Assembly (NCBI GenBank): GCA_049325335.1
Contig: JBMOMC010000006.1
Span: 35,673-99,672 of the forward strand
Source of the DNA: Nitrospirota bacterium
GTDB taxonomy: Bacteria > Nitrospirota > Nitrospiria > 2-01-FULL-66-17
Direction of reading: 5' to 3'
DNA: 64,000 nt
The first letter of the stretch is position 1, and each line of letters begins with the position of its first letter. The notes beneath the pieces were generated by a model. The model was given only the letters and a program-made list of their open reading frames with translations, did no database searches and was not told where the DNA came from. Below are positions 24,901 through 41,227 of this stretch, piece after piece. Made by a program: the position numbers and the translations under genes.

Positions 24901-25253
24901 CGATGGCGTTCACCAATCTGCTGACCAACGCGATCGAGGCAATGCCTCATGGGGGGACCCTGACGCTGCGAACGTTTGCGGGATCTGATGGTATCCAGAC
25001 CGAGATTGAGGATTCCGGGCCCGGGATTCGAGAGGAGTTACAGGAGCACCTGTTCAAGCCGTTCATCACAACCAAGATCGGCGGTACCGGACTTGGGCTT
25101 TGGACCACGAGGCGGATCATCGAGTCGCATCACGCAGGACGCCTGACGATCGACTCGGTCCCGGGCAAAGGCACCGTGGTCCGGGTGTGGATGCCGACGC
25201 GAAGCCCGGCGAGCACCGCTCTGCGAGAGGTGGTGAGTCATGGAACGAGCTGA
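21945..25253 (+). CDS. Multi-domain hybrid sensor histidine kinase: polytopic membrane sensor, GAF, HisKA/HATPase, REC, then a second DHp/HATPase
   Basis: About 8 N-terminal TM segments. Core 1 has H-box SEIAHELRGPL, N-box NLLSNAIKYT, and G-boxes DTGPGM / GTGLGLAL. The REC domain shows LVADDSE...TDLMMP...DDYVAKP. Core 2 has H-box LAHAVKNPV, N-box LLTNAIEAM, and DSGPGI / GTGLGLW. Confidence 0.9.
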   Translation: MTIVPKGILIVGIAIATAAIGILVLKERRAAANVAGFFLCLAAAFQALFLFGREWLLDRNQVPLPWNNFADASGALFSFAAVSFALAFPKPIPHFRLAVIPLAVVSAPIAGIALAGGNFAEHAVVDGVHVFTTTTFYQVYVAYALLSMVATFGILVAKYRQAGTASANETARKAVGTVLIGFSGAIAVGLIFAFILPLLFHEVRYFYLQTLGFLIATIVVFYSVVRFRAFDVQTVVHKTLSWLALSSVPLAVAFWVGSWLKPRMAEASASEWGLAIGGIGFLCGLYLYVAQPYIDQLFDRRKHNLRRTLEEMITDLAVLQELRPMAEGILARVCRVLPVEGASALVLADSRDRLVVVASQGHGATDSIGVGAAVLKRLETGDVLAFDRAGDDSARQWLETSNFALCFPLVQQGQVVGAIALGKKRNLRRFAPREIAFLSRVAATATIAFSNSLLLERVRELDRLKTEFLSEIAHELRGPLFGISSIADGLTADDDHALTEDHRRLIDVIRVTAVEMKELVEHLFDLNKIEMGIMRFDVQPVDVPTVVRLAADLARDSARAKGLSLEVALDDDLPLVEGDRTRIRQCVTNLLSNAIKYTDKGTIRLSCGLEGTGVRVAVADTGPGMAPEEVKTAFDRYRRGREVGAIEGTGLGLALTKEIIEAHGGSVAVDSAPGKGSTFFFDLPIQQATPQRMTDGAHRWPGRPLLRTHASLGTGLQGGSSWTMPESLHGRGETVLVADDSETDREALRASLVGKGYTVLAAKDGMEALDLVRTHKPGLVVTDLMMPRLSGAELCRLLKEDPDTASIPVILVTARNSLGDMVFGIEMGADDYVAKPYDAHELAVRISALLRMRRIREDLESAQARLVEMELIATSAGTLAHAVKNPVVIIRNYVKWLRDAIERSDRRETGDALARIDAAAAAIARIIDGLKRAHLDRPRKTWVHLPELLDGTLREMAETAAGAGVHVVRDYEEGLPAVEADAAQLAMAFTNLLTNAIEAMPHGGTLTLRTFAGSDGIQTEIEDSGPGIREELQEHLFKPFITTKIGGTGLGLWTTRRIIESHHAGRLTIDSVPGKGTVVRVWMPTRSPASTALREVVSHGTS

Positions 25254-26661
25254 GATTCTGGTCGTTGAAGACGACCCCAACTACGTCGAACTGTACGGAG
25301 CGGTCTTGAAGGCCGCGGGATACACGACCGCCGTCGCGTCCGATCCCCAAGCCGCGCTCGCAGCGATCCATCGGCGCGCACCGGACCTGGTGCTCCTCGA
25401 TCTGACCTTTGAGGGCACGCCGCAGGCCGGGTTGGACTTCATTCCTGACGCGCTCCATCGACAGCCGGACCTTCCTATCACCGTGGTGAGTAGCCAGGAT
25501 CAGAGCGCGATCATCACCAAGGCCCTGGAACTGGGCGCGGTGGATTACATCGTGAAGGATCAATCGCTCTACGACCTGCTCGCGTTCCGGGTGGGGCAGA
25601 CGCTGACCCGCACGCGCCTGGAGCGGCGGATCAAGATGGACGGCGGGTTCATCTTCGACGCGGGCCGGGTGATCATCGGGCGGTCTCCAGCGATGGTGCA
25701 TGTCTACGACCTGATCGAGCGCGTTGCCCAGCACCGGTCCACCGTGCTCATCCTGGGGGAGAGCGGGACCGGGAAGGAACTGGTGGCCCAAGCCATCCAC
25801 GCGCGCAAGGGGCTGCCCAGCGCGCCGTTCGTCTCGATCGATTGCGGCGCCGTACCGAAGTCCGTCTTGGAACCCGAGTTGTTTGGGGTGAAGGCGAATT
25901 ACCCAGGCTTTCACAACAAAGAGCGGCTGGTCGGCAAGCTGGAGGCCGCCGGAGAAGGAACGCTCTTCCTCGATGAGATCGGCAACATGGAGATGGACCT
26001 GCAGGCCTCCCTGTTGCGCGTACTTGAGGAGCGCCGGTTCACACCGATCGGGGACACGACACCTCAATCGCTCAAAGCCCAGGTCGTCGCCTCGACCAAC
26101 GTCAACATCGACGCGGCCATCCGAACGGGAAAGTTCCGCGAAGATCTCTACTATCGCCTGAACGAAGTCCCGATCGTGTTGCCCCCGCTGCGCGACCGGA
26201 AGGAGGACATTCCCTTGTTGGTGCGACACGTGCTCGCTCAACACGAGGTGCGGTCGGGCGATCGGATCGAGATCGTGCCGGAGGCGGTGGAGAAACTGAT
26301 GGCCTACGATTGGCCCGGCAATGTGCGGGAACTCGTCAAGACGTTGCAGCGAGCGGCGACATTGTGCCGGTCCCGTTATCTCACGCCGAAAGATTTCGAT
26401 CTCAGCCCGTCCACGGCCAAGCCCACGGCTGGGGCGATCGAATTTACACCCGTTGACGAGTCGGTCCTGTCGATTTCGGTTCGTGTGCCGTTCGAGAGTA
26501 CGCCGTTGGCCGAGTTCACGCGCGCTGCGAGAAGGGCATACGCCAAGCATGCCATGGCGCAGTCCAAGGGCAATCGGCTCATGGCAGCGGGGCTGTTAGG
26601 CGTCGACATCAGAACACTGCGACGGTTGCTGAATAACCGCAGTGGAGACGAGGGGACGTGA
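25240..26661 (+). CDS. NtrC-family response regulator (REC, AAA+ bEBP domain, Fis-type HTH) with a degenerate GAFTGA loop
   Basis: REC domain ILVVEDDP...VLLDL, Walker A GESGTGKE, Walker B LFLDEIG, and C-terminal HTH NRLMAAGLLGVDIRTLRRLL. The canonical ELFGHEKGAFTGA reads ELFGVKANYPGFHNK here. Confidence 0.9.
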   Translation: MERAEILVVEDDPNYVELYGAVLKAAGYTTAVASDPQAALAAIHRRAPDLVLLDLTFEGTPQAGLDFIPDALHRQPDLPITVVSSQDQSAIITKALELGAVDYIVKDQSLYDLLAFRVGQTLTRTRLERRIKMDGGFIFDAGRVIIGRSPAMVHVYDLIERVAQHRSTVLILGESGTGKELVAQAIHARKGLPSAPFVSIDCGAVPKSVLEPELFGVKANYPGFHNKERLVGKLEAAGEGTLFLDEIGNMEMDLQASLLRVLEERRFTPIGDTTPQSLKAQVVASTNVNIDAAIRTGKFREDLYYRLNEVPIVLPPLRDRKEDIPLLVRHVLAQHEVRSGDRIEIVPEAVEKLMAYDWPGNVRELVKTLQRAATLCRSRYLTPKDFDLSPSTAKPTAGAIEFTPVDESVLSISVRVPFESTPLAEFTRAARRAYAKHAMAQSKGNRLMAAGLLGVDIRTLRRLLNNRSGDEGT

Positions 26662-26759
26662 TGGAAAGAGATCGCGCTTTGCAGCTCCCTCTGAACACCG
26701 CTTCTACAGGCAGTCTTGCCGCGAGTCTCTGCCGTTCGTCTCCCCGCCCTCCAATGCCT

Positions 26760-27980
26760 TCAACTGAAGAAATTGAACGATCTTGACTCAGGAAATTTAC
26801 AATTAGGATTTCTAAAGAGCAGTCCCTCATTGTAGAAGCGGCTAACGTTGGTAGTCCTCTCGCTTCTGACTTCTGACCAATAGCCTATTGCTGCGACGTG
26901 AGAGAGCCCGGGCTTCGCAAGCTCAAGGCAGGTCATGATTTGCAGGGCGCTATCCGTATTTAGACCGTGAAGATCATCTATCCCTTCTAAAAAACACCAA
27001 ATCAGACCGGGTCGTGACGTATCTAATTGCCCAACAGCATTGGAAATCCTATCCCTGATGCCAGATACGACATGATCAGCCTTGTTCGACTTCAAGATCA
27101 GTTCAACGGGATCAACGGGGTGCCCACCGTGGCCCCTTGCGAAAACTGCCCCGTGAGCGTGGTGTTGCTCTTCCTTGTTCAGCTTTTCGTACAGGTTGCT
27201 GTAGCACGAAGCAAAATCCACAGCGGCTTTGCTCGATCTCTCTAGCTCTACGTGTAATGTCCCTTGATCGATAGACCGAAAGCCGTGGTTTCCCGTGGTC
27301 CTTATTGATTGAATGACTGAGTGCAATAAGGTGTCCAAGTACTGCTCATTGGTATGAAGCCGGTCGTTTAACGTGAGATCAATTGTCCCCGAATATCCCA
27401 TCTTCTCGATTTCGGGAATCAGCTTTTCTGCAAGTCGGTAAAAGTCTCTCCGTCTAATCTTTCTGGACGCGTCTACGCTTATTCGTTTGCACTCAACATT
27501 AAATTCTACCGTGGGGGCTTTCACTAGGAACTCTGAATGGCGGCGAGAGTCGTCACTGTGCCATTGAATTGAATAGCCCTTCACATAAAAAGGCCATGCC
27601 GCTGCTATCTCAAACAGAGCGTCATATGATCGTTCGTCAACAGTAAGGTCCCGACGATATTTCTCTCTGATCGAGTCGGGCATCAGTTTCTGAAGAGTAG
27701 TTATCTTTTTCGCATCAGCAGCTAGGTTCTTCAGTTCGCCCGTAAGGTTTAATCGTAGAGACTTGCCAGCCTTGAGCAGCGCACGATACTCGCTAAGAGC
27801 TTGCCACCATGGATGCCTATATTTTAGAAAATACTCCCGATATACCGGGCCAGCCGATCGGAGGGCCTTTTCGTATCTTTCGAGTTGTTTCTCCACAGTA
27901 ATTGGCCCTAGAAACCGAATGAGTTTCCTGACCAAATTCGACACCTCAGTGTCATGAAGCTCTGCAACTGACTGCGTCAT
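26760..27980 (-). CDS. Hypothetical protein, 406 aa, with a possible PD-(D/E)xK nuclease-like core
   Basis: Lower-GC ORF. The segment HSEFLVKAPTVEFNVECKRIS fits the (D/E)-x(n)-E-x-K restriction-endonuclease-fold pattern. No other motif was recognised. Confidence 0.5.
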   Translation of the reverse strand: MTQSVAELHDTEVSNLVRKLIRFLGPITVEKQLERYEKALRSAGPVYREYFLKYRHPWWQALSEYRALLKAGKSLRLNLTGELKNLAADAKKITTLQKLMPDSIREKYRRDLTVDERSYDALFEIAAAWPFYVKGYSIQWHSDDSRRHSEFLVKAPTVEFNVECKRISVDASRKIRRRDFYRLAEKLIPEIEKMGYSGTIDLTLNDRLHTNEQYLDTLLHSVIQSIRTTGNHGFRSIDQGTLHVELERSSKAAVDFASCYSNLYEKLNKEEQHHAHGAVFARGHGGHPVDPVELILKSNKADHVVSGIRDRISNAVGQLDTSRPGLIWCFLEGIDDLHGLNTDSALQIMTCLELAKPGLSHVAAIGYWSEVRSERTTNVSRFYNEGLLFRNPNCKFPESRSFNFFS

Positions 27981-28028
27981 TTTATGGCGCGGAGTTTTGA
28001 GAGTTTCCGCGTCTCACGGCAACCTTGA

Positions 28029-29090
28029 TTATGGTAACGGAGCCAAGAGACCTCTCCTTGACTTGATGGTGATCGCGTCAGATGGACGGCGCTCAAAATC
28101 TTCATCCGAGATCTTGTGCATTATTTGGGGTGTGCCTCCGTCGGGAGGAATGAAGAGGACTGTTGCTGCGGCGGAACCAGACCGCATGACGTCCGGGCCT
28201 ACCGCAAAGCAATCGCCAAATAGAACGCCTAGCGGCCCGTCAAAGCTATGATCCTTGTAAAACTTCAGCACGCGGCAGTTGGTGAGTTGTATCTGATCGG
28301 GATCGATCCTAGAGAAACGATCATAAAAGTCTCTTCTGTCGACGGGCGGAAGAAAGACGACTCGATCTGCGATACCGGCAACAAGGGTAAGTTCTTTCCC
28401 CACAAGGCCAATACCTATCCATGGGCTATCGAATCCACCATTTGGACAGCGGGCTATGAACGGGCCCTCCAAGATTTGTTCCGTGGGTCTGGTGATCTGT
28501 TCTCTGAGTGGATTGAGATGTTTCTGAAGCGCCCACGAATATCCCAGTTCCCGAAACCACAGAAGATATGCCGAGGTCAGAAAGCCAATCGCAATCAGCC
28601 GTTGTTTTTCCTCTTCCAGGATCGGAATCGGTACGGTAACGGTGAGGTGGCCAGGGCGAGCGGCTTGCAGTTCTTCTAGTCGTCTCAGCGAATCTGGAGA
28701 GGTCTTGTCTGCCCAAATAAGAAATTGGAGGCCAGTCGCAGGCGTAAACTCGAAACTGCCACTAACCCGTATACCCGAGACTTCAAAATAGCCTCTTGTC
28801 AGTCTTGTGTTTAGGACAGACTGCTGACCGTCTCTTCGCAGTCTTAGGTACTCTCCGAACCATTTATCCTGCCGAGTTCCGAACGTACTGTTGCATCGTC
28901 TACAGATAAGGGTCTTCAGCGTCCCCCCTGCGACGCGTGGGATGACGTGAGCCTCGCTAATTTCGTCAGGTTGATCACCCGGAATCGAATTGAGACAAGT
29001 CGGGCAGAGAAAATGGCCTGCGAATTGCGGATGGAACAAAGCGAAGCTTCTTGCAAGCTCTGAAATGACTCTCTGTTTCGTCCGTTTCAT
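28029..29090 (-). CDS. Protein with an N-terminal HNH (His-Me finger, HNH_5-like) zinc-finger domain and an uncharacterised C-terminal domain
   Basis: CPTCLNSIPGDQPDEISEAHVIPRVAGGTLKTLICRRCNSTFG fits CxxC...(E)H(V/I)IP..GG...CxxCN..(F)G. The remaining 270 aa or so are unassigned. It sits 48 nt upstream of the 406-aa gene on the same strand. Confidence 0.55.
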   Translation of the reverse strand: MKRTKQRVISELARSFALFHPQFAGHFLCPTCLNSIPGDQPDEISEAHVIPRVAGGTLKTLICRRCNSTFGTRQDKWFGEYLRLRRDGQQSVLNTRLTRGYFEVSGIRVSGSFEFTPATGLQFLIWADKTSPDSLRRLEELQAARPGHLTVTVPIPILEEEKQRLIAIGFLTSAYLLWFRELGYSWALQKHLNPLREQITRPTEQILEGPFIARCPNGGFDSPWIGIGLVGKELTLVAGIADRVVFLPPVDRRDFYDRFSRIDPDQIQLTNCRVLKFYKDHSFDGPLGVLFGDCFAVGPDVMRSGSAAATVLFIPPDGGTPQIMHKISDEDFERRPSDAITIKSRRGLLAPLP

Positions 29091-29579
29091 GTTGTCGAGA
29101 ACAGACCCCGCTTACCAGAGTCCCACTTGCGCGCTACATCTGAGCAGCTCGCGTAGATCGTCGAGCAAGGACACGCCAGCATAGACTCTAGCCGAGCTGA
29201 CAGTCAAGAAATCGCCGAAGAACAGCGTTACGAGGGCTCTCCCCCGGTGTATGCTGCTTCCGGATTAGAACGCTCATGCGGAAATCCCGAAGTTCCCATC
29301 GACGCTCATGGGCTCCAGCGCGTGTCCGTCGGGCGCGCGTCACGCCAAATCCGGATTCACGCTGGCCGGTTTCCTGCGTTCGAGCCCGCGTCTCTCCCGG
29401 TATGATCACTGCGAGCGCCTAGCGCCTTCCGCGCTTCGGGCCTTTCGAGAAGCGGTCAGAGGCGGCCTTTTCGCCGCACGGCGTGTCCGGCACTGTCCTC
29501 ATCACGGCCGGAAGGCGTGAATTCTGGCCGCTCCGGGAGGCATGGTTCTGGCAGTTTCTCTCTGCGACCTGTTTGCGTC

Positions 29580-30086
29580 ATGGATGACGTGCCAACGCCG
29601 GGTGAGAAATACAAGGCCCTGAAGGAACGGCTCTGGAACCAACCGCGTCCTCGCCAGATTCTGGAGCGACTCGAGCAGCACCGCGCCAGCCCCCCGATGT
29701 TGGAAACCGTGGCGCAGACCTTTGTGAATGGGCGGCACGGGGAGGCGGAGATCAGATCGGCCATCTACAGCGAGCTGCTCCGCAATCGCGACCGGACCGC
29801 GGTTCTCAAACGAATCGGCGATCTCCGCCACTGCCTTATGAAGATTCAACAGGATCTGTCCCACGTCGCGCGCGAGTTGCATCAACTCAAGGTCTGGGAG
29901 GGACACCGCGTCTTGGGATACGAGTCCTGGGGCGACTGTCTCGAGAAGGAGTTGGAGTTGTCCGATCAGGTGGCGAGGATGCTGTTCTTGGCGGAGGAGC
30001 AGGGGGAGCGGGCCACGTTCGACGCGTTCGTGCGGACGCTCATCAAAGGCTACGCGGCGACCCGGCCGGCCGTGGCGGTGAAATGA
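29580..30086 (+). CDS. Hypothetical protein, 168 aa
   Basis: ORF with an ATG at 29580 (MDDVPTPGEKYKALKERL). Its stop overlaps the next start (ATGA at 30083-86), suggesting an operon. No domain was recognised. Confidence 0.4.
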   Translation: MDDVPTPGEKYKALKERLWNQPRPRQILERLEQHRASPPMLETVAQTFVNGRHGEAEIRSAIYSELLRNRDRTAVLKRIGDLRHCLMKIQQDLSHVARELHQLKVWEGHRVLGYESWGDCLEKELELSDQVARMLFLAEEQGERATFDAFVRTLIKGYAATRPAVAVK

Positions 30087-30523
30087 ACGAGGAACTGCCC
30101 GAGGCTTGGTGCTGGGAACGGTTACGGAGTCTTCGCTGGCCGGCCCGTGTGGTCTGCCCCCACTGTCGCCGACCCGCAGGCCGGCATCATCGAAGGCGGC
30201 ATGCGCTGTACTACCGGTGCGCGCGGTGCCAGCGAGTGTTCTCCGACCTCACCGGTACGCCATTCCAGGGCAGCCCGCTGCCGCTGGCGTGTTGGTTTCG
30301 AGCCATTGCGTGGCAAATGATGAGTGAGTCCGGCAGCGCCGCTGCGCTCGCTGAGGCGGTTGGTGTGGACCACCGAACCGCAAGGAAGATGCAGCATCGG
30401 CTTGCCATGCTTGACCGTGATCCGTTGTTGCGGGCCATCGGAACGAGCGTGCTCTGTCAGAGGCCGGAGTCACATGTGCACATCGGAGTGGGTTTTGACA
30501 CCGTGTCAAAACCCACTCCGTAA
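30083..30523 (+). CDS. IS1595-type transposase N-terminal zinc-ribbon domain protein, with no DDE catalytic domain
   Basis: LRWPARVVCPHCRR...YYRCARCQRVFSDLTGTPFQGSPLPLACWFRAIAW matches the Zn-ribbon/HTH N-terminus of IS1595/ISXO2-like transposases. At only 146 aa it lacks the catalytic part. Confidence 0.6.
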   Translation: MNEELPEAWCWERLRSLRWPARVVCPHCRRPAGRHHRRRHALYYRCARCQRVFSDLTGTPFQGSPLPLACWFRAIAWQMMSESGSAAALAEAVGVDHRTARKMQHRLAMLDRDPLLRAIGTSVLCQRPESHVHIGVGFDTVSKPTP

Positions 30524-32453: not shown

Positions 32454-32686
32454 TCGGCGTCGTGGTTTGCATCAACAAATTTCCGGTGCAATTGTCGTCT
32501 TGCATCACTGAGCAGGCACATACTGACGTGTAAATCTTAGGGAAACGCTGCCCAGTTTTTGGGCGATGTGCTCGGGCCACGATCATCAGGGCTCTCCACT
32601 CGTGTTCCCACAAGCTGTCCACACGATTTTTCACAGCATCTGTGGAGGAGATTCTTGCGATCAAAGGGCACGGACGGGTGGTTTCC

Positions 32687-32716
32687 TTGACCCGTGGAGC
32701 CGCGACGGGCTATGCT
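32687..32716 (+). promoter_or_regulatory. Candidate sigma-70 promoter for the SNF2 helicase gene
   Basis: TTGACC (32687-92), an 18-nt spacer, then TATGCT (32711-16). GAGGGG lies 6 nt before the putative TTG start at 32743. Confidence 0.35.
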
Positions 32717-32742
32717 GCGGTGCGGTTTTCGAGGGGCCTGCC

Positions 32743-35631
32743 TTGCCTGAACCCGGTTCCAGCGCCGTCGAGCGCGCATCGTTGTCCATCACGTCCTACC
32801 ACGCCAAGTTTCTCGCCCATGAGCTGACCAAACGCTGTGCCTCCGATACCATCGAGAAACTCGCCGGCGCGTTGGTGGACGCCCAGGTGGACCTCAATCC
32901 GCACCAGGTCGAAGCGGCCCTGTTCGCTTTCCGATCGCCGCTGTCCAAGGGCGCGCTGCTCGCCGACGAAGTCGGGTTGGGGAAGACGATCGAGGCCGGT
33001 CTGGTGCTCTCGCAGAAATGGGCGGAGCGAAAGCGGCGAGTCTTGGTGATCACGCCCTCCAATCTCCGCAAACAGTGGCATCAGGAGTTGACCGAGAAAT
33101 TCTTCCTCCCGTGTCATATTTTGGAAACCAAGTCGTACAAGGAAGCGATCAAACAGGGGCGGCCGCATCCGTTTCACGCCGACGCGATCATTATCTGCTC
33201 CTACCAATTCGCCCGCGGCAAGGCGGCTGACATCAGTTCGATCCCGTGGGACCTGGTTGTCATCGACGAGGCCCACCGACTGCGAAACGTCTACAAGCCG
33301 TCGAACATCATCGCGAATACGCTCAAAGAGGCGCTCAAACACGCTCCCAAGCTGCTGCTGACCGCCACGCCGCTCCAAAATTCCCTGCTGGAATTATTCG
33401 GCCTGGTGAGTTTCGTCGATGAACACGCGTTCGGGGATCTGAAGAGTTTTCGCGAACAATTTGCCTCGGTGAACGATCCCGCGGTCTTCGGCGCCCTCAG
33501 GGCGAGGCTCCGGCCGCTCTGCCATCGGACGTTGCGGCGCCAGGTTCTTCCGTACGTGCGGTATACGAAGCGGCTGCCCATCGTCCAACCCTTTACGCCG
33601 GAGGAGGGCGAGGATCGGCTCTATCATTTGGTCTCCGACTACCTCCGTCGCGACAATCTGCAAGCCCTACCGTCAAGCCAGCGCACGCTCATGACGCTGG
33701 TGTTGCGGAAGCTGCTGGCCTCATCAACGTTCGCGATCGCCGGGGCCCTTGAGACATTAAGCGGACGGCTTCAGGAGCGGTTGAAAGCGCAGGAGCCCGC
33801 GCAGCCCCTGGAAGACGAGTTGGACCAGGATTACGAAGCGCTCGACGAAACGGCCGAGGAGTGGTCCGAGAACGGAGGCCCTGAACCAATGTCAGCCGCC
33901 GATCGTGAAGCGATCGGGCGCGAGATCGCTGACTTGGACCGGTTCCGGGAACTGGCGGTCTCGATCACCCACAACGCCAAGGGCAAAGCCCTGCTCGTGG
34001 CGCTTGAGCGCGCCTTCACCGAGGCTGACCGACTGAGAGCGCCGCGCAAAGCGATCATCTTCACCGAGTCGCGCCGCACGCAGGACTACTTGCTCCGAGT
34101 CCTGGCGGACGGGCCGTATCGCGACAAGATCGTGCTCTTTAACGGCTCCAACACCGACGAAGGGTCTCGTCGCATCTATGCCGAGTGGGTCGAGCGGCAT
34201 ACCGGCACCGACCGCGTGACCGGCTCGCGCACCGCGGACATGCGCTCCGCGTTGGTCGACTATTTCAGAGAGCAAGGCCAGATCATGATTGCGACCGAGG
34301 CGGGGGCGGAGGGCATCAATCTCCAGTTCTGCGCGCTCGTGGTGAACTACGACCTGCCCTGGAACCCCCAGCGCATCGAACAGCGAATCGGCCGCTGCCA
34401 TCGCTACGGCCAACAACACGACGTCGTGGTAGTTAACTTCCTGAATCAGACGAACGAGGCCGATCAACGCGTGTTCAGAATTCTGTCCGAAAAGTTCCGG
34501 CTCTTCGATGGCGTATTCGGCGCGAGCGACGAAGTGCTCGGCGCCATCGAATCGGGCGTGGATTTCGAAAAGCGCATCGCGGACATCTACCAGCGCTGCC
34601 GGAAGCCGGAAGAGATCAACAATGCCTTCGACCAGCTTCAACTCGACCTGAGCACCCAGATCAACGACGCCATCACGAAAACGCGTCAACAACTGCTGGA
34701 GCACTTCGACGACGAAGTGCGGGAAAAACTCCGCGTGAGCGACGAGAGTTCGCGCCAGTACCTGAATTATTTTGAGCGGATGTTGATGCGTCTCACCCGG
34801 TACGAACTCACTGGTCACACTGAGTTCCTCAGCGATTCGGCATTCCGCCTGAACGCCTGTCCGTTCGAAGGCGACATCCCGCTCGGCCTCTATGAACTCC
34901 CGCGTCGGTCGGGTGAAGCCCATTTCTACCGCATGGGCCATCCACTGGCACAACGGATCCTTGACCAAGCCAAGAACCGCCCGCTGGCGCCCGCTCAAGT
35001 GGTCTTCGACCTGAGCCAATACGATGGGAAGGTCAGCGTCTTAGAACCGTTCCTCGGTCAGTCGGGCAGTCTCATGCTCGCTTTGCTCACGGTCGAATCC
35101 CTCGACCAGGCGGAAGATTATCTGCTCGTCGGCGCGGTGACTGATGACGGAAGAACGTTGGATGAGGACGCCGCACGCCGGTTGTTCGCCTTGCCGGGGC
35201 GCGTAGTCAAAGAGCTTGCTGGCGAGGGAGGCGACGCGGGATTGGAGGAGATCCTCCATCGGCGGCAAGAAACCATTCAGCGGACAATCGCGCAGCGCAA
35301 TGCGGCGTTTTTCGAGGTGGAGGCGGAAAAGTTAGACGGCTGGGCCGATGATCTCAAAGTGGGCCTTGAGCGGGAGATCAAGGAAATGGATCGCCAGATC
35401 AAGGACGCCCGGAGGGCTGCGGCCGCATCGCTGACCCTGGAGGAAAAGCTGGCGGGGCAAAAGGACGTCAAGGCTTTGGAAGGCCAGCGCAGCGCCAAGC
35501 GGCGGGCATTGTTCGATGCGCAGGATGCTATTGATCAGAGGCGCGAGCAGTTGATCGCAGAGATCGAGGGAAAGTTGCAACAGCGCGTGACACGGACAGG
35601 ACTCTTTTCCATTCAATGGGTCCTAACGTGA
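32743..35631 (+). CDS. SNF2-family helicase with a C-terminal coiled-coil region
   Basis: Motif I ADEVGLGKT, motif II VIDEAHRLRN, motif VI QRIGRCHRYGQ, and a C-terminal heptad-rich stretch of about 150 aa. The track ORF starts at 32566. I prefer the TTG at 32743, in frame and with an SD, because residues before it are Cys/Gly/His-rich and non-conserved-looking. The start is uncertain. Confidence 0.85.
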   Translation: MPEPGSSAVERASLSITSYHAKFLAHELTKRCASDTIEKLAGALVDAQVDLNPHQVEAALFAFRSPLSKGALLADEVGLGKTIEAGLVLSQKWAERKRRVLVITPSNLRKQWHQELTEKFFLPCHILETKSYKEAIKQGRPHPFHADAIIICSYQFARGKAADISSIPWDLVVIDEAHRLRNVYKPSNIIANTLKEALKHAPKLLLTATPLQNSLLELFGLVSFVDEHAFGDLKSFREQFASVNDPAVFGALRARLRPLCHRTLRRQVLPYVRYTKRLPIVQPFTPEEGEDRLYHLVSDYLRRDNLQALPSSQRTLMTLVLRKLLASSTFAIAGALETLSGRLQERLKAQEPAQPLEDELDQDYEALDETAEEWSENGGPEPMSAADREAIGREIADLDRFRELAVSITHNAKGKALLVALERAFTEADRLRAPRKAIIFTESRRTQDYLLRVLADGPYRDKIVLFNGSNTDEGSRRIYAEWVERHTGTDRVTGSRTADMRSALVDYFREQGQIMIATEAGAEGINLQFCALVVNYDLPWNPQRIEQRIGRCHRYGQQHDVVVVNFLNQTNEADQRVFRILSEKFRLFDGVFGASDEVLGAIESGVDFEKRIADIYQRCRKPEEINNAFDQLQLDLSTQINDAITKTRQQLLEHFDDEVREKLRVSDESSRQYLNYFERMLMRLTRYELTGHTEFLSDSAFRLNACPFEGDIPLGLYELPRRSGEAHFYRMGHPLAQRILDQAKNRPLAPAQVVFDLSQYDGKVSVLEPFLGQSGSLMLALLTVESLDQAEDYLLVGAVTDDGRTLDEDAARRLFALPGRVVKELAGEGGDAGLEEILHRRQETIQRTIAQRNAAFFEVEAEKLDGWADDLKVGLEREIKEMDRQIKDARRAAAASLTLEEKLAGQKDVKALEGQRSAKRRALFDAQDAIDQRREQLIAEIEGKLQQRVTRTGLFSIQWVLT

Positions 35632-35740: not shown

Positions 35741-36751
35741 TTGGCCAAACCGCCCAAGGAGCGCATCAGTCCGCAGATGGCACGATCTGATCTTCTCATA
35801 TCGCTGGTCAAGACAGGGCGGGACAGTTCTAATCCGCGTTTCCGTCGCGCGGTCGAAGCCCTGATCGCAGAGGAGCGCGCTAAGAAGCACAATATGCTTG
35901 CAGACCAACTCGCCGCCGCTTACACTGACCAATCTACGAACGGTCCGCCACGGCCCCTAAGTGCGCCGTCGGGAACCGTAGCCGATTTGGTGTACGAGAT
36001 TGCTTCCGACCGTAGGCTCGACAGCCTCGTCTTGCCTCAGATAGTGGCCCAAGAGTGTCGGAGTCTGATCGAGGAGCATCGGCGTGCCGACCTTCTGCGT
36101 TCCTTTGGTCTTGCGCCGCGCCATCGTGTCCTTCTCGTCGGCCCACCCGGCAATGGAAAAACGTCTCTTGCAGAGTCACTGGCTCACGAGTTGATGGTCC
36201 CATTGCTGGCCATTCGATACGAAGGCCTTATCGGCAGCTACCTGGGCGAGACAGCGGCACGTCTGCGGAAAGTCTTTGATTATGCCCGACAGCGAGCGTG
36301 TTTGCTGTTTTTTGACGAATTCGAGACGCTGGGCAAAGAACGCGGTGATGAACACGAAACTGGAGAGATCAAGCGCGTGGTCAGCACGCTTCTACTGCAA
36401 ATTGATAGCCTTCCTCCGCATGTTGTGGTGGTTACCGCGACAAACCATCGCGAGTTGTTGGACCGTGCGGTCTGGCGTCGCTTTCAACTTCGTCTTGAGC
36501 TGCCTAGTCCGACGAAGAGACAGGTGACGCAATTCCTCGATCGTTTGTTCGCACAATTGGAGTTCGCGCGTACTCTGCCGGTAAGTACTTTCGCGGAGTC
36601 ATTCCGCAGCGCGAGCTATTCCGAAATCGAGGACTTTGTGCGTGATCTTGCTCGTCGCTATGTTCTTGCAATTCCGAATGGCGACGTACGAAAGATCGCA
36701 CGGGATCTGCTCGCCGCGTGGAAAGCTCGAGCGGGTTCCGAATCTCGATAA
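35741..36751 (+). CDS. AAA+ ATPase (classic-clade AAA), IetA-like
   Basis: Walker A GPPGNGKT, Walker B LLFFDEFE, and sensor-1 / Arg-finger region VVVTATNHRELLDRAVWRRF. It is paired with a downstream S8 peptidase as in the Iet (IetA/IetS) defence system. The start is TTG 35741 or ATG 35777. Confidence 0.75.
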   Translation: MAKPPKERISPQMARSDLLISLVKTGRDSSNPRFRRAVEALIAEERAKKHNMLADQLAAAYTDQSTNGPPRPLSAPSGTVADLVYEIASDRRLDSLVLPQIVAQECRSLIEEHRRADLLRSFGLAPRHRVLLVGPPGNGKTSLAESLAHELMVPLLAIRYEGLIGSYLGETAARLRKVFDYARQRACLLFFDEFETLGKERGDEHETGEIKRVVSTLLLQIDSLPPHVVVVTATNHRELLDRAVWRRFQLRLELPSPTKRQVTQFLDRLFAQLEFARTLPVSTFAESFRSASYSEIEDFVRDLARRYVLAIPNGDVRKIARDLLAAWKARAGSESR

Positions 36752-36766
36752 TCCAGGGGCACCCCA

Positions 36767-39382
36767 TTGCCCGACAAGCCGATTCTCATATTTCCAGCCG
36801 CGACTGTCGAAGCGCGACGACCACTTCCACAGGGTTTCACTCCACCTCGTACACGACCGACGCAAGCACAGCAACGTAGACGTCTGGCAGCTCGATTTCA
36901 GGCACTTTCACAGAGCTTTGGGGTCGTCCGTGCAGATACGACTGGCCTCGATCCCGAGCAGGTCGTTGTTTTCGAGGTCGCTGGCGCCATCGCTGACTTT
37001 CAGAATGTCGTTAGGCGACTCGGGGGAATGGAGTGGCTTGGTGATTTTGAAGTCGAGATCGCCGAGCCACCTCCAGCATTTTTCGAACAGGGCGTGTCCG
37101 TAACGCCGCTGGCGGGTCGGCTGTTCGTTGTCGTCAGCAACCAAGCAAAGCTCAACGAGATCGTCCGGCTCTGGCGGCTCTGGTGCCGATCAAGCGACGA
37201 AAAGCTCCCTCGTAACTTTGGGAAGTTAGCCGAGGTCTTTAAGCACCTGAACGACGTGCGTCCATGGGGCGTACAAGATCGCCTTCGAGAGCGCCGCGCT
37301 CTCGATTGGTGGAGGGACTGCCTTGCAGCGAATAAGGCGACTATTCGCTTTGAGGTCGAACTCTGGTGCCGTCAGTCGGCGGAGAAACAAGCCGAGGCTT
37401 ACCGACACCTTCAGGGTGTCGTTCAGGAGATTCATGGTCAGTGCGTCACGCAGGCTGCCATTTGGGAGATCGATTATCATGGTGTACTCGTCGATCTTCC
37501 AGCATCGGCGGTCCAGGCCACGATAGATGCACTCAACGCTCAGGGAGATACCAAGCTTCTGCGTCTCACCGACATCAAGTATTTCTGTCCGATGGGGCAA
37601 GTCGTCATAGCCCATCCGACAGAGTCGGCACCAGGCGACTTCCCCCAACAGCCGCGACCAGGCGGTGATCCGATTGTTGGCCTGTTAGATGGCCTTCCCC
37701 TCGAAAACCATGCAGCACTCCAGGATCGTCTCATTATCGATGACCCAGATGGCTTTTCTTCTCGGTACGGCGCAGGGGAGCAACGTCACGGCACGGCGAT
37801 GGCTTCTCTAATCGTGCACGGCGAACTGGATGGAAACGAGGATGCACTTCTCCGCCCCGTGTATACGCGACCAATCATGTATCCCGGCAGCCCCAATATT
37901 AACCACATCCGATGGGAGCAGTTACCCGAGGGCAACCTGCCAGTTGATCTCACTTTTCGCGCGGTACGACGGATGTTCGAGAGTGACGGGGTGACACCTG
38001 CAGTTGCGCCAACCGTCAAGGTCATCAACTTCAGTATTGGTGACGCAAATCAGCTCTTCGATCGCGAAATGAGTCCATGGGCTCGCTTGCTGGATTGGCT
38101 GGCGTGGAAATATAAGGTGGTGTTTGTCGTCAGCGCGGGCAACCACCACGGGAACGTTACATTGGAAACGCCCGCAGATCAGTTGATGACACTCGGCGAT
38201 GACACGCTGCGCGCCCAGACGCTGCGCGCGATGGCGCGGGATCAATTGCAGCGACGTCTGCTTGCTCCGTCGGAGTCCGTCAATGCGGTTACCGTGGGAG
38301 CCGTACATGCGGATCTTGGGCCGAATAGCCCGCCCCCGAGCCTTGTGGATCCTCTTCGGAATGCCCGCTATTGCAGCCCGATTTCCTCTGTCGCCGGTGG
38401 GTTCCGACGATCCGTCAAGCCGGATATCTTGGTTGCTGGAGGCCGTCAACATTATCGGATACAGATGACGACGCCGAGTGCGAATCCGGCCGTGCTTGAG
38501 GTGCCGGAAAATCACAGCCAGCTTGGCCAGCGCGTGGCCGCTCCGGGTGGCATAGCGATTCCCCCAAATCACACGACACGTGTATGCGGAACCAGCAACG
38601 CTGCGGCTTTGACCACGCGTCGAGGTGCCCAATTGTACGATCAGATTCACGCTCTGCGCACAGAGCCGGGCGGCGAAGTACTGACGGACGACCTCGTTTC
38701 GGTACTAATCAAAGCGCTGCTTGTTCATGGAACATCATGGAACGACATGGAAGGCGTGATTGGTTCTGCTCTGGATCAAGGCGACAACGGAAATACCCGA
38801 TGGAATCGGGTGAAGCGCGCCTGTACCCAGTTTCTTGGATATGGCGAGGCGGATTGGGTTCGAGGCAGCGTGTGTACCGATCAGCGAGTCATCATGCTTG
38901 GAGTCGGTCGTCTTGAGGCGGACCGAGCACACGTTTACGAGGTGCCTCTTCCGCCAGCGCTGAGTGCCCAGCGTGTCGGCAGGCGCCTGACGGTCACCCT
39001 GGCTTGGCTGACGCCAATCAATACGCGTCATCGTTCATACCGCGTGGCCTCGCTATGGTTTGACCCGCCATGCGACGCATTACAGTTGGAGAGACGGGAT
39101 GGTCACCACGACACAGTAAACCGGGGAACCGTTCAACATGAGATCCTTGAAGGCGACCGAGCGGTGCCGATCACTGTCGGCGATACCGCTACGGTGCAGG
39201 TCAACTGCCGATCTGATGCTGGAACAAAGCTGCCTTCTCCGATTCCATACGCGCTCGCAGTAACCCTCGAGGTCTCACGTCCCCTCGCGGTGAGTGTGTA
39301 CGACGAGGTGAGGGTCGCTCTGGATCGAATCCGCACAGTATCACGTGTCCGTCCTCCCGTTCGCACAGGTGGTCGTGGGTAG
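36767..39382 (+). CDS. S8-family subtilase (871 aa), IetS-like
   Basis: Catalytic Asp region IVGLLDGLP, His HGTAMASLIVHG, oxyanion Asn VVSAGN, and Ser GTSNAAALTT. There is no signal peptide, so it is predicted cytoplasmic. It begins 15 nt after the ATPase stop. Confidence 0.8.
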   Translation: MPDKPILIFPAATVEARRPLPQGFTPPRTRPTQAQQRRRLAARFQALSQSFGVVRADTTGLDPEQVVVFEVAGAIADFQNVVRRLGGMEWLGDFEVEIAEPPPAFFEQGVSVTPLAGRLFVVVSNQAKLNEIVRLWRLWCRSSDEKLPRNFGKLAEVFKHLNDVRPWGVQDRLRERRALDWWRDCLAANKATIRFEVELWCRQSAEKQAEAYRHLQGVVQEIHGQCVTQAAIWEIDYHGVLVDLPASAVQATIDALNAQGDTKLLRLTDIKYFCPMGQVVIAHPTESAPGDFPQQPRPGGDPIVGLLDGLPLENHAALQDRLIIDDPDGFSSRYGAGEQRHGTAMASLIVHGELDGNEDALLRPVYTRPIMYPGSPNINHIRWEQLPEGNLPVDLTFRAVRRMFESDGVTPAVAPTVKVINFSIGDANQLFDREMSPWARLLDWLAWKYKVVFVVSAGNHHGNVTLETPADQLMTLGDDTLRAQTLRAMARDQLQRRLLAPSESVNAVTVGAVHADLGPNSPPPSLVDPLRNARYCSPISSVAGGFRRSVKPDILVAGGRQHYRIQMTTPSANPAVLEVPENHSQLGQRVAAPGGIAIPPNHTTRVCGTSNAAALTTRRGAQLYDQIHALRTEPGGEVLTDDLVSVLIKALLVHGTSWNDMEGVIGSALDQGDNGNTRWNRVKRACTQFLGYGEADWVRGSVCTDQRVIMLGVGRLEADRAHVYEVPLPPALSAQRVGRRLTVTLAWLTPINTRHRSYRVASLWFDPPCDALQLERRDGHHDTVNRGTVQHEILEGDRAVPITVGDTATVQVNCRSDAGTKLPSPIPYALAVTLEVSRPLAVSVYDEVRVALDRIRTVSRVRPPVRTGGRG

Positions 39383-39445: not shown

Positions 39446-41080
39446 ATGGATAGACGCCAAAAACTCGAACTCACTTGGATCGGGAAGGAGAACCGGCCAA
39501 AACTGGAGCCGCGGATTCTGCTGGCGGACCCGAAGACGTCTTACCACGCACCACACCGAGTCACCGACCGCGACTTGTTCGACAACCGCCTCATTTTCGG
39601 CGACAACCTGCTCGCCCTCAAAGCCCTCGAACAGGAATTTTCTGGCAAGATCAAGTGCATTTTTATTGACCCACCGTACAATACCGGTGCAGCGTTCGAG
39701 CACTATGATGACGGGGTGGAACATTCGACCTGGCTGTCGCTGATGCGCGATCGGCTAGAAATCATCTGGCGGCTGTTGTCCGACGACGGTTCGCTGTGGA
39801 TCACCATCGATGACAACGAGGCGCATTACCTGAAGGTGTTGTGCGATGAGGTGTTTGGGCGGGCCAACTTCGTTGCCTCGATGGTTTGGGAAAAAGACAG
39901 CGGGCGCAAGAACGATACAGACGTTTCTTCGTCGCACGACTATGTACTACTTTTCGCTCGCAATAGAGAGATATGGCGTAAGACGCGGAATCTGTTGGAG
40001 CGCAGCGACGAGCAGCTTGACCGGTATCAGAATCCCGATAACGACCCTCGGGGGGCGTGGAGACAAGGAGCTGACGGTACGGCAAAGAGTGGGAGCGAAA
40101 GTCTGCGCTATCCCATTACATTACCTTCGGGTAGGGTAGTAACACCTCCCTCTGGTAATTTTTGGAGGTTCAGTCGAGAAACCTTTGAAACGGCGGTTGC
40201 GGAGAATCGCGTCTACTTTGGGAAGGACGGCAATCGCCTGCCGATCATTAAGAAGTACCTCTCCGAGATTCAAACCGGTATTGTGCCCAAAACATGGTGG
40301 CCTGCCGACGAGGTCGGATCGAACCAAGAAGCCAGGCGAGATCATTTGAGGAAGCTGTTACCCGACATCGAACCCTTTGCCACGCCCAAGCCGGAGCGGC
40401 TGCTCAAACGAATCGTTGAGATTGCCACCAATCCCGGTGACTTGGTCCTTGACTCATTCGCCGGTTCCGGCACCACCGGGGCCGTCGCCCACAAGATGGG
40501 TCGTCGCTGGATCATGGTGGAGCTTGGCGAGCACTGCCACACGCATATCATTCCGCGTCTGAAGAAGGTCATCGACGGAACCGACAAGGGGGGAATCACC
40601 GAGGCCGTGGGCTGGAAGGGCGGCGGTGGGTTTCGTTATTACCGGCTGGCGCCGTCGCTGCTGGAGCAGGACAAGTGGGGGAATTGGGTTATCAATAAGG
40701 CGTACAACTCGGCGATGCTGGCCGAGGCTGTCTGCAAGCTGGAGGGATTCACGTACGCGCCCAGCGACGCGGCCTACTGGCAGCACGGTCACTCCACCGA
40801 GTGCGATTTCATCTACGTCACCACGCAGAATCTGAACCACGACCAGCTCCAGCAGCTCAGCGACGAGGTCGGCCCCAATCGCACGCTGCTCGTGATGTGC
40901 ACCGCCTTCCGCGCCAAGCCGGATCGGTTTCCCAACCTGACGATCAAGAAGATCCCCAAGACCGTGCTCTCCCGGTGTGAGTGGGGCAAGGACGATTACA
41001 GCCTGCGCGTGGAGAACCTGCCGAAGGCGCCGCCCCCGATGGGGCAGCAGGAGTTGGAATTGGACCGAGATAAGAGATAG
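39446..41080 (+). CDS. mod: Type III restriction-modification methyltransferase (Mod; beta-class N6/N4 amino-MTase)
   Basis: Motif IV IFIDPPYNTG precedes motif I DSFAGSGTTG, which is the beta permutation. The size and variable central domain are typical of Mod subunits. Confidence 0.9.
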   Translation: MDRRQKLELTWIGKENRPKLEPRILLADPKTSYHAPHRVTDRDLFDNRLIFGDNLLALKALEQEFSGKIKCIFIDPPYNTGAAFEHYDDGVEHSTWLSLMRDRLEIIWRLLSDDGSLWITIDDNEAHYLKVLCDEVFGRANFVASMVWEKDSGRKNDTDVSSSHDYVLLFARNREIWRKTRNLLERSDEQLDRYQNPDNDPRGAWRQGADGTAKSGSESLRYPITLPSGRVVTPPSGNFWRFSRETFETAVAENRVYFGKDGNRLPIIKKYLSEIQTGIVPKTWWPADEVGSNQEARRDHLRKLLPDIEPFATPKPERLLKRIVEIATNPGDLVLDSFAGSGTTGAVAHKMGRRWIMVELGEHCHTHIIPRLKKVIDGTDKGGITEAVGWKGGGGFRYYRLAPSLLEQDKWGNWVINKAYNSAMLAEAVCKLEGFTYAPSDAAYWQHGHSTECDFIYVTTQNLNHDQLQQLSDEVGPNRTLLVMCTAFRAKPDRFPNLTIKKIPKTVLSRCEWGKDDYSLRVENLPKAPPPMGQQELELDRDKR

Positions 41081-41087
41081 CGCGCGA

Positions 41088-41180
41088 ATGAAGCGACCTA
41101 TGCGGGCGACGTTGTATCACCGGATTCGGGAGATTCTGGAATCGGCCCGGACCCGCGTGGCGCGGACGGTCAACACCACA
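41088..41180 (+). pseudogene. Possible remnant of a DUF1016/YhcG-type (PDDEXK nuclease) gene N-terminus
   Basis: MKRPMRATLYHRIREILESARTRVARTVNTT resembles the conserved N-terminal helix of DUF1016 proteins. Similarity is then lost and the frame runs into the res gene. The call rests on recall of the family consensus only. Confidence 0.3.
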
Positions 41181-41227
41181 TCCTGGGACACGCCGACATC
41201 ACAACAATCGGAGATCTGGTACGCACC

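Follow-up and report, generated by a model that had tools for sequence, protein, structure and literature searches.

A 64-kb stretch of DNA from a Nitrospirota bacterium, which we refer to as the window (all coordinates are positions within it), carries two adjacent genes of low G+C content (GC), designated here A and B, at the junction between the chromosome and an integrative and conjugative element (ICE). The locus raises the question of whether these genes form a two-gene nuclease system, as had been proposed in an earlier note on this DNA, or are separate genes that came to lie next to each other. The data presented below favor the second answer, to which we assign a probability of roughly two in three: A and B would be two unrelated stand-alone nuclease genes lying side by side at the chromosome/ICE junction, and not a conserved system.

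Gene B (26760-27980, minus strand, ATG start) encodes a protein of 406 amino acids (aa) and gene A (28029-29090, minus strand, ATG start) a protein of 353 aa, with 48 nucleotides (nt) between them (27981-28028). A sigma-54 response regulator gene (25240-26661) is convergent with B, at a stop-to-stop distance of 98 nt. With a GC of 0.497, the stretch from 26760 to 29090 (2,331 nt) ranks first for low GC among 61,670 segments of the same size across the 64 kb (mean 0.615, standard deviation 0.035), at about -3.4 standard deviations; 1-kb GC values over A and B are 0.483 and 0.522, and those of the flanks are approximately 0.60-0.66. The GC at third codon positions (GC3) is 0.51 for A and 0.51 for B, compared to 0.79-0.80 for core/chromosomal neighbor genes and 0.73-0.85 for ICE backbone genes. 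The low-GC feature is real and far from chance, and both genes are compositionally foreign. In these respects, the locus is as the earlier note had described it: two same-strand genes 48 nt apart, of foreign composition, occupying the lowest-GC stretch of the window and beginning within 100 nt of the regulator stop.

Co-occurrence of A and B

Synteny was tested by tblastn and by running profile hidden Markov models (HMMs) of both families against all open reading frames (ORFs) of all loci. The B loci numbered 25, comprising 19 genome loci with flanks of up to 10 kb and 6 further loci, while the independent A loci numbered 81, comprising 80 metagenome loci and the contig of the closest A homolog. 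No A relative was detected in any of the 25 B loci (tblastn for the 19 genome loci, profile HMMs for all 25), and no B relative was detected in any of the 81 A loci by either method. The sole joint occurrences of A and B were in two other assemblies of the same organism, with identical flanks. A conserved A-B pair was therefore rejected, the synteny tests having found it in 0 of 106 independent loci, and A and B are not a conserved two-gene system. The earlier note had described a two-gene module and had tied its fate to synteny in other genomes; at 0/25 and 0/81, this description is not supported.

The gene that follows the closest A relative (59% identity) after 44 nt is unrelated to B, belongs to no family, and encodes 228 aa as called (242 aa by an alternative ORF call). 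All-against-all clustering of neighbors was also used to look for a constant alternative partner for A or B, and none emerged.

A different possibility is that A and B are nonetheless a genuine co-transcribed, interdependent defense or abortive-infection system, which would either be of great rarity or have been assembled recently in this lineage. Several features of the locus speak for it and weigh against the interpretation that we prefer. The genes share a strand, a short gap, and an equal, foreign GC3, and a consensus scan found a single promoter-like site ahead of A but nothing of the kind in the spacer, so that co-transcription, and perhaps co-acquisition, fits. Moreover, a donor with the pair may be unsampled, since identity to the closest relatives available is no higher than 56-59%. 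The pair also adjoins defense-type cargo of the ICE, and several A relatives do have some same-strand gene immediately downstream. However, these downstream genes are mutually unrelated, B relatives occur without any partner, no PADLOC model matches either protein, and profile HMMs found zero co-occurrence in the independent loci. Taken with these results, an interdependent pair appears improbable, and we favor the interpretation that A and B would be independent foreign cargo genes that landed adjacent at the chromosome/ICE junction.

The promoter-like site is a weak lead. It is a sigma-70-like match, TTGACT-18-TATGCT (29178-29207, minus strand), situated upstream of A at a distance of about 90 nt and scoring 9/12, and the number of such sites was not above shuffle expectation. 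The spacer, on the same strand, can form a weak hairpin with a 6-bp stem (-11.7 kcal/mol, z -0.98) that is no better than those of shuffled sequences, and an Rfam scan of 26000-30200 detected no RNA element.

The HNH_5 protein A and its relatives

Protein A scored 33.8 bits against Pfam HNH_5 (PF14279), above the gathering cutoff of 27.5, over residues 29-79 (28854-29006, minus strand). Like the members of that family, it carries a CxxC...H...CxxCN finger, in the form C30xxC33 ... AH48VIP ... GG ... C63xxC66N67. The finger (C30xxC33, H48, C63xxC66-N67) is common to the 40 homologs that were found, and H48, C63, C66, and N67 are invariant or nearly so in the family alignment. Judged by its sequence, A truly belongs to the His-Me finger family HNH_5, of which it is a new member, and the earlier note had read the motif correctly. 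HNH_5 sits in the His-Me finger superfamily, in groups 1 and 8 of Jablonska et al. 2017 (PMC5714182). Among known structures, its nearest counterparts would be the beta-beta-alpha-metal fingers with Cys4-zinc sites in Hpy99I and T4 endonuclease VII, and the best match of A to PDB sequences in a profile search was the Hpy99I finger, at a non-significant E of 0.54.

In contrast with HNH_5 and Hpy99I-type fingers, A possesses an extra invariant C-terminal domain of approximately 270 aa (residues 90-353; 28032-28823, minus strand) that has no fold or sequence match; the earlier note had set it apart as an unknown domain. Its invariant residues are T172, F179, Y184, S185, Q189, R196, and P202, and it contains a conserved helix region, LTxAYLLWFxxLGYSWxLQ. 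The AlphaFold2 (AF2) model of A has a predicted local distance difference test score (pLDDT) of 91.3, and a Foldseek search with the full-length model returned no PDB chain at E < 1e-3; A likewise had no NCBIfam, PADLOC, or PHROG match. When just the last 264 residues of A served as the query, every protein recovered either bore an HNH_5 finger or was a fragment, indicating that the architecture of A is fixed, and fusions of this domain to other effectors were never seen in that search.

By homology to HNH enzymes, the Cys4 zinc finger would hold a beta-beta-alpha-metal site in which H48 would be the general base and N67 would coordinate the metal. The fixed C-terminal domain would probably function in target recognition or in gating of activity. 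Type II systems of the Hpy99I type have a methyltransferase, whereas none adjoins A. Within the window, no methyltransferase adjoins either A or B, the nearest being a Type III Mod 10 kb away with its own Res, and a Type II restriction-modification system was rejected because no cognate methyltransferase lies beside either gene. Similarly, no DNA methylase was present among the 25 recurrent Pfam families listed for the B or A neighbor sets or among the 10 immediate B neighbors that were scanned individually. Given the lack of a methyltransferase partner, A and B, if they restrict DNA, would have to be modification-dependent or otherwise activated.

The genes encoding A relatives have a lower GC than their flanks at 38 of 40 loci. 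They lie in variable regions, and their neighbors, which are accessory genes in kind, include TIR (3), DUF4238 (2), and DUF2971 proteins, tyrosine and DDE integrases, nucleotidyltransferase and SocA-type toxin-antitoxin parts, and a tandem second HNH_5 gene. TIR-TPR and DUF4238 are domain types known from anti-phage systems, and from these defense-type neighborhoods, a defense role for A is reasonable. Genes encoding a TIR-TPR protein and a DUF4238 protein are among those directly downstream of A relatives at L029 (9195-10178) and L063 (1555-2499), and at L036 (5774-7887) the gene for an A relative overlaps by 4 nt with the next gene, which encodes a second, different HNH_5 protein of 335 aa.

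HNH_5 genes are reported to be common among mobile cargo, integron cassettes being one example (PMC7370490). A crude scan for RYYYAAC...GTTRRRY combined with folding found no attC-like sites in 26400-29700 and almost none in 13 A loci, and neither the 48-nt nor the 98-nt spacer contains attC-type cores. An integron cassette was rejected on the basis of this simple scan.

The predicted nuclease core of B

B had no match in Pfam, NCBIfam, PADLOC, or PHROGs, and its 129 close homologs are all "hypothetical" where the source gives any name. A profile search recovered 973 clusters at 50% identity, 609 of them at E <= 1e-10, and nearly all of these clusters are approximately 400 aa long and aligned end to end. 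The long start of B is supported by homologs that align from residue 1 and by the invariance of L20 and F23. B founds an unannotated family that most likely lies within the PD-(D/E)xK superfamily.

In the AF2 model of B (pLDDT 93.6, predicted template modeling score 0.89), residues 115-204 (27369-27638, minus strand) form a helix, three strands, a helix, and a strand (alpha-beta-beta-beta-alpha-beta). E124 lies in the first helix of this predicted core, E150 at the start of strand 2, E163-C164-K165 in strand 3, and E185 in the second helix, followed by the fourth strand; the corresponding motifs are SEFLV at 149-153 and VEFNVECK at 158-165. Conservation was counted in a diverse alignment of 62 members reaching down to about 20% identity. 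E124 and E163 are each present in 62/62 and position 150 is acidic in 62/62 (E in 39, D in 23), while C164 is found in 61, K165 in 58 (the other 4 have R), and position 185 is D or E in 60, being E in B and D in most relatives. Two residues of the C-terminal domain, Q318 and N391, are invariant as well.

An E / [E/D] / ExK series at such secondary-structure positions is the canonical geometry of PD-(D/E)xK nucleases. Both elements by which such a core is recognized, the topology and the conserved acidic residues with (D/E)xK on strands 2/3, are found in B, in a predicted structure. Based on the motif, the topology, and sub-threshold fold and profile matches, B is quite probably a PD-(D/E)xK-type nuclease.

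Two results weigh against this assignment. Foldseek returned no match at E < 1e-3 in PDB or BFVD for the full-length B model, and kinship with Mrr or McrC was rejected, as hhalign comparisons with one Mrr and one McrC sequence, both from E. coli, gave a probability below 1%. Searching the B family profiles against PDB sequences with hmmsearch also gave no real match. The Foldseek lists, all below significance, are rich in Hjc and other Holliday-junction resolvases, RecU, HincII, HindIII, N.BspD6I, and VRR-NUC, and also hold entries named "restriction endonuclease"; several of these weak matches have a local root mean square deviation of about 2 Å over about 50 columns. Hjc, Mrr_cat, and PDDEXK_5 account for 3 of the 25 weak Pfam families listed for B-family members (37 matched), with Hjc matched twice. 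The restriction-endonuclease-fold core that the earlier note had suggested for B therefore survives as an E...ExK series invariant to about 20% identity on a predicted alpha-beta-beta-beta-alpha-beta core, but not as a significant fold match. In the structural check that the note had called for, Foldseek on AF2 models, full-length A and B gave no significant match to a nuclease fold.

The predicted core of B has the alpha-beta-beta-beta-alpha-beta arrangement of Hjc, RecU, Mrr_cat, PDDEXK_5, and Type II restriction endonuclease cores, and shares with PD-(D/E)xK cores the acidic residue of helix 1, the acidic residue of strand 2, and the ExK of strand 3. It is unlike these families in its large N- and C-terminal domains, which have no known counterpart, and in the conserved Cys inside ExK (E-C-K). 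Shedu (SduA, DUF4263) is a mobile single gene of approximately 400 aa that combines a PD-(D/E)xK-type core with extra domains and has no methyltransferase partner. B is similar to Shedu and other single-gene PD-(D/E)xK defense nucleases in its length, its combination of a core with extra domains, its mobility, and its lack of a methyltransferase. In contrast with Shedu, however, the core of B is central rather than C-terminal, B has no PADLOC or Pfam match at E <= 1, and its relatives reside among housekeeping genes rather than in defense islands. PADLOC-DB v2, which includes Shedu, Septu, Zorya HNH, Hachiman, and Gabija, gave 0 families at E <= 1 for both A and B, in agreement with the view of the earlier note that neither protein is a named defense system. 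By the tests run, B does not belong to Shedu, Mrr, McrC, or any of the families in PADLOC.

We propose that B consists of an N-terminal helical domain, a central PD-(D/E)xK-like Mg2+ nuclease core, and a C-terminal alpha/beta domain. By analogy with the superfamily, Mg2+ would probably be bound via E150 and E163, K165 would be the catalytic lysine, and E124 and D/E185 would assist. Most likely, A and B would each act alone as a DNA endonuclease, and a restriction-like or abortive-infection role is the most plausible function of the two proteins. The nuclease activity of B, the action of each protein alone, and a role in defense are inferred.

Distribution of the B family and setting of the locus

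B relatives are AT-rich in every host (GC 0.31-0.41, compared to 0.43-0.67 for flanks or hosts), and the low-GC patch coincides with the B ORF. At L016, for instance, the GC passes from 0.69 to 0.34 and back to 0.64, and the next gene begins 4 nt after the B stop; this distance can be 4-12 nt. The immediate neighbors of B relatives encode LpxK, Lgt, a class II ribonucleotide reductase, an aldehyde dehydrogenase, an AMP-binding enzyme, and an ADP-ribosylglycohydrolase, and their neighborhoods contain only scattered generic PADLOC matches. The result on enrichment in defense islands, for which the earlier note had proposed a test, is consequently divided: it is supported for A, whose relatives have TIR, DUF4238, toxin-antitoxin, and integrase neighbors, but not for B, whose neighbors are mostly housekeeping genes.

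Four Pirellulales metagenome-assembled genomes (MAGs) hold B at four different loci, with an identity of 44-65% that is no higher than that between phyla, and the identity of B does not follow host taxonomy. The related Desulfobaccales-type MAGs L004 and L010 have the same B insertion upstream of lpxK, with a B GC of 0.31-0.32 in genomes of approximately 0.61. Because B is about 90% identical between these two at the DNA level, as the flanks are, it was inherited vertically in them. In L010, an insertion sequence (IS) with a DDE transposase has inserted just upstream of B. In-frame stops interrupt the B copies of L004 (9965-11236, at about codon 205) and L015 (10001-11224), and the copy in L017 (10001-10822) has an N-terminal truncation; these three are either decaying copies or assembly errors.

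No terminal inverted repeats or conserved flanks were found across 12 B loci. A search of the window turned up neither a tRNA nor att-type direct repeats that would place A-B within or beyond the ICE, and no repeats on either side of A-B; with neither flanking repeats in the window nor conserved ends across the 12 loci, a transposon or IS carrying B was rejected. PHROGs gave no match for A or B. Viral contigs contained 0 A relatives and 1 B relative, on a contig (L101, an IMG/VR uncultivated virus genome) that matches part of the Desulfosarcina widdelii chromosome (L005) at 100% identity and so does not represent an independent phage occurrence. A phage origin was rejected on both grounds, and plasmid cargo was rejected as well, there being one distant match each for A and B in 72,556 plasmids.

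These habits invite a second explanation for B, namely that its family consists of selfish homing-endonuclease-like genes that are copied into cut empty sites during repair, with B a passenger that brings the host no benefit. Free-standing homing endonuclease genes, such as the phage T4 seg/mob genes, are single nuclease genes between conserved genes, and precise insertion, patchiness, and decay make up their usual life cycle. B resembles these genes in being AT-rich in every host, precisely inserted as a single gene with sharp composition borders and the next gene as little as 4-12 nt away, patchy, located at different loci within one bacterial order with an identity that does not track taxonomy, and occasionally decaying, although it differs from them in being chromosomal in diverse bacteria rather than phage-borne. 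Against a homing lifestyle, the L004/L010 insertion shows vertical inheritance without any indication of spread, viral contigs are essentially devoid of B, and no terminal repeats or conserved flanks accompany it. We regard selfish homing as an unlikely account of the family; for B, either a defense role or a homing-like lifestyle is conceivable.

Least likely, and in our view highly improbable, is that B is inactive as a nuclease and uses its core for binding or other chemistry in a non-defense cellular role, an idea to which the housekeeping neighborhoods, the lack of a significant fold or profile match to any nuclease, and the larger functional site suggested by Q318 and N391 outside the core lend some support, but which is at odds with the strict invariance of the E / D-E / ExK series at canonical secondary-structure positions and with a foreign composition and a patchy, non-taxonomic distribution atypical for housekeeping genes.

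To the right of A and B lie genes encoding a ParB-like protein, a SNF2-family protein (32566-35631, 1021 aa), an AAA ATPase with an S8 protease, and Type III Mod and Res proteins, and farther to the right are a type IV coupling protein and the F-type transfer genes TraE, TrbI, DsbC, and TraC. The adjacent element is conjugative and carries restriction and defense-type cargo, as the earlier note had held in placing a defense-rich ICE alongside A and B. A-B is either cargo of this ICE or a separate islet at the same junction.

Some of the other genes of the element are of interest in their own right. The AAA ATPase (336 aa) and the S8 subtilase (871 aa) that follows it (35741-39382, plus strand) have a GC3 of 0.57-0.58, compared to 0.73-0.85 for the ICE backbone, making them a second compositionally foreign cargo pair and one that looks like a candidate ATPase-protease defense module. 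The Type III Mod (N6_N4_Mtase, 544 aa) and the ResIII helicase-nuclease (930 aa; together 39446-44020, plus strand) have a native-like GC3. Closer to A, a gene at 30083-30523 (plus strand) encodes a protein of 146 aa that has the zinc ribbon of IS1595-type transposases but not the transposase catalytic domain, and sits between a 189-aa unknown ORF and the ParB-like gene.

Overall, the locus has yielded two new members of known enzyme kinds. The failure of the proposed two-nuclease defense pair saves follow-up effort on a module known from one organism. The A family, in which an HNH_5 finger is joined to a fixed unknown domain, is, judged by its neighborhoods, a candidate stand-alone defense nuclease. 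The most interesting residue of the finding is the B family, which is large, has a strict motif, and is cleanly inserted, always AT-rich and alone, between core genes of Desulfobacterota, Planctomycetota, Nitrospirota, and other groups. It merits consideration for a Pfam entry of its own and as a candidate single-gene defense or selfish nuclease. More speculatively, and with a rather low likelihood, the B family could represent a new class of autonomously spreading, solitary PD-(D/E)xK nuclease genes of bacterial chromosomes, either homing-like selfish elements that enter precisely between housekeeping genes or a new and widespread single-gene immune nuclease of anaerobic sediment bacteria, for which the pairing with an HNH_5 protein might make a composite system in this organism.

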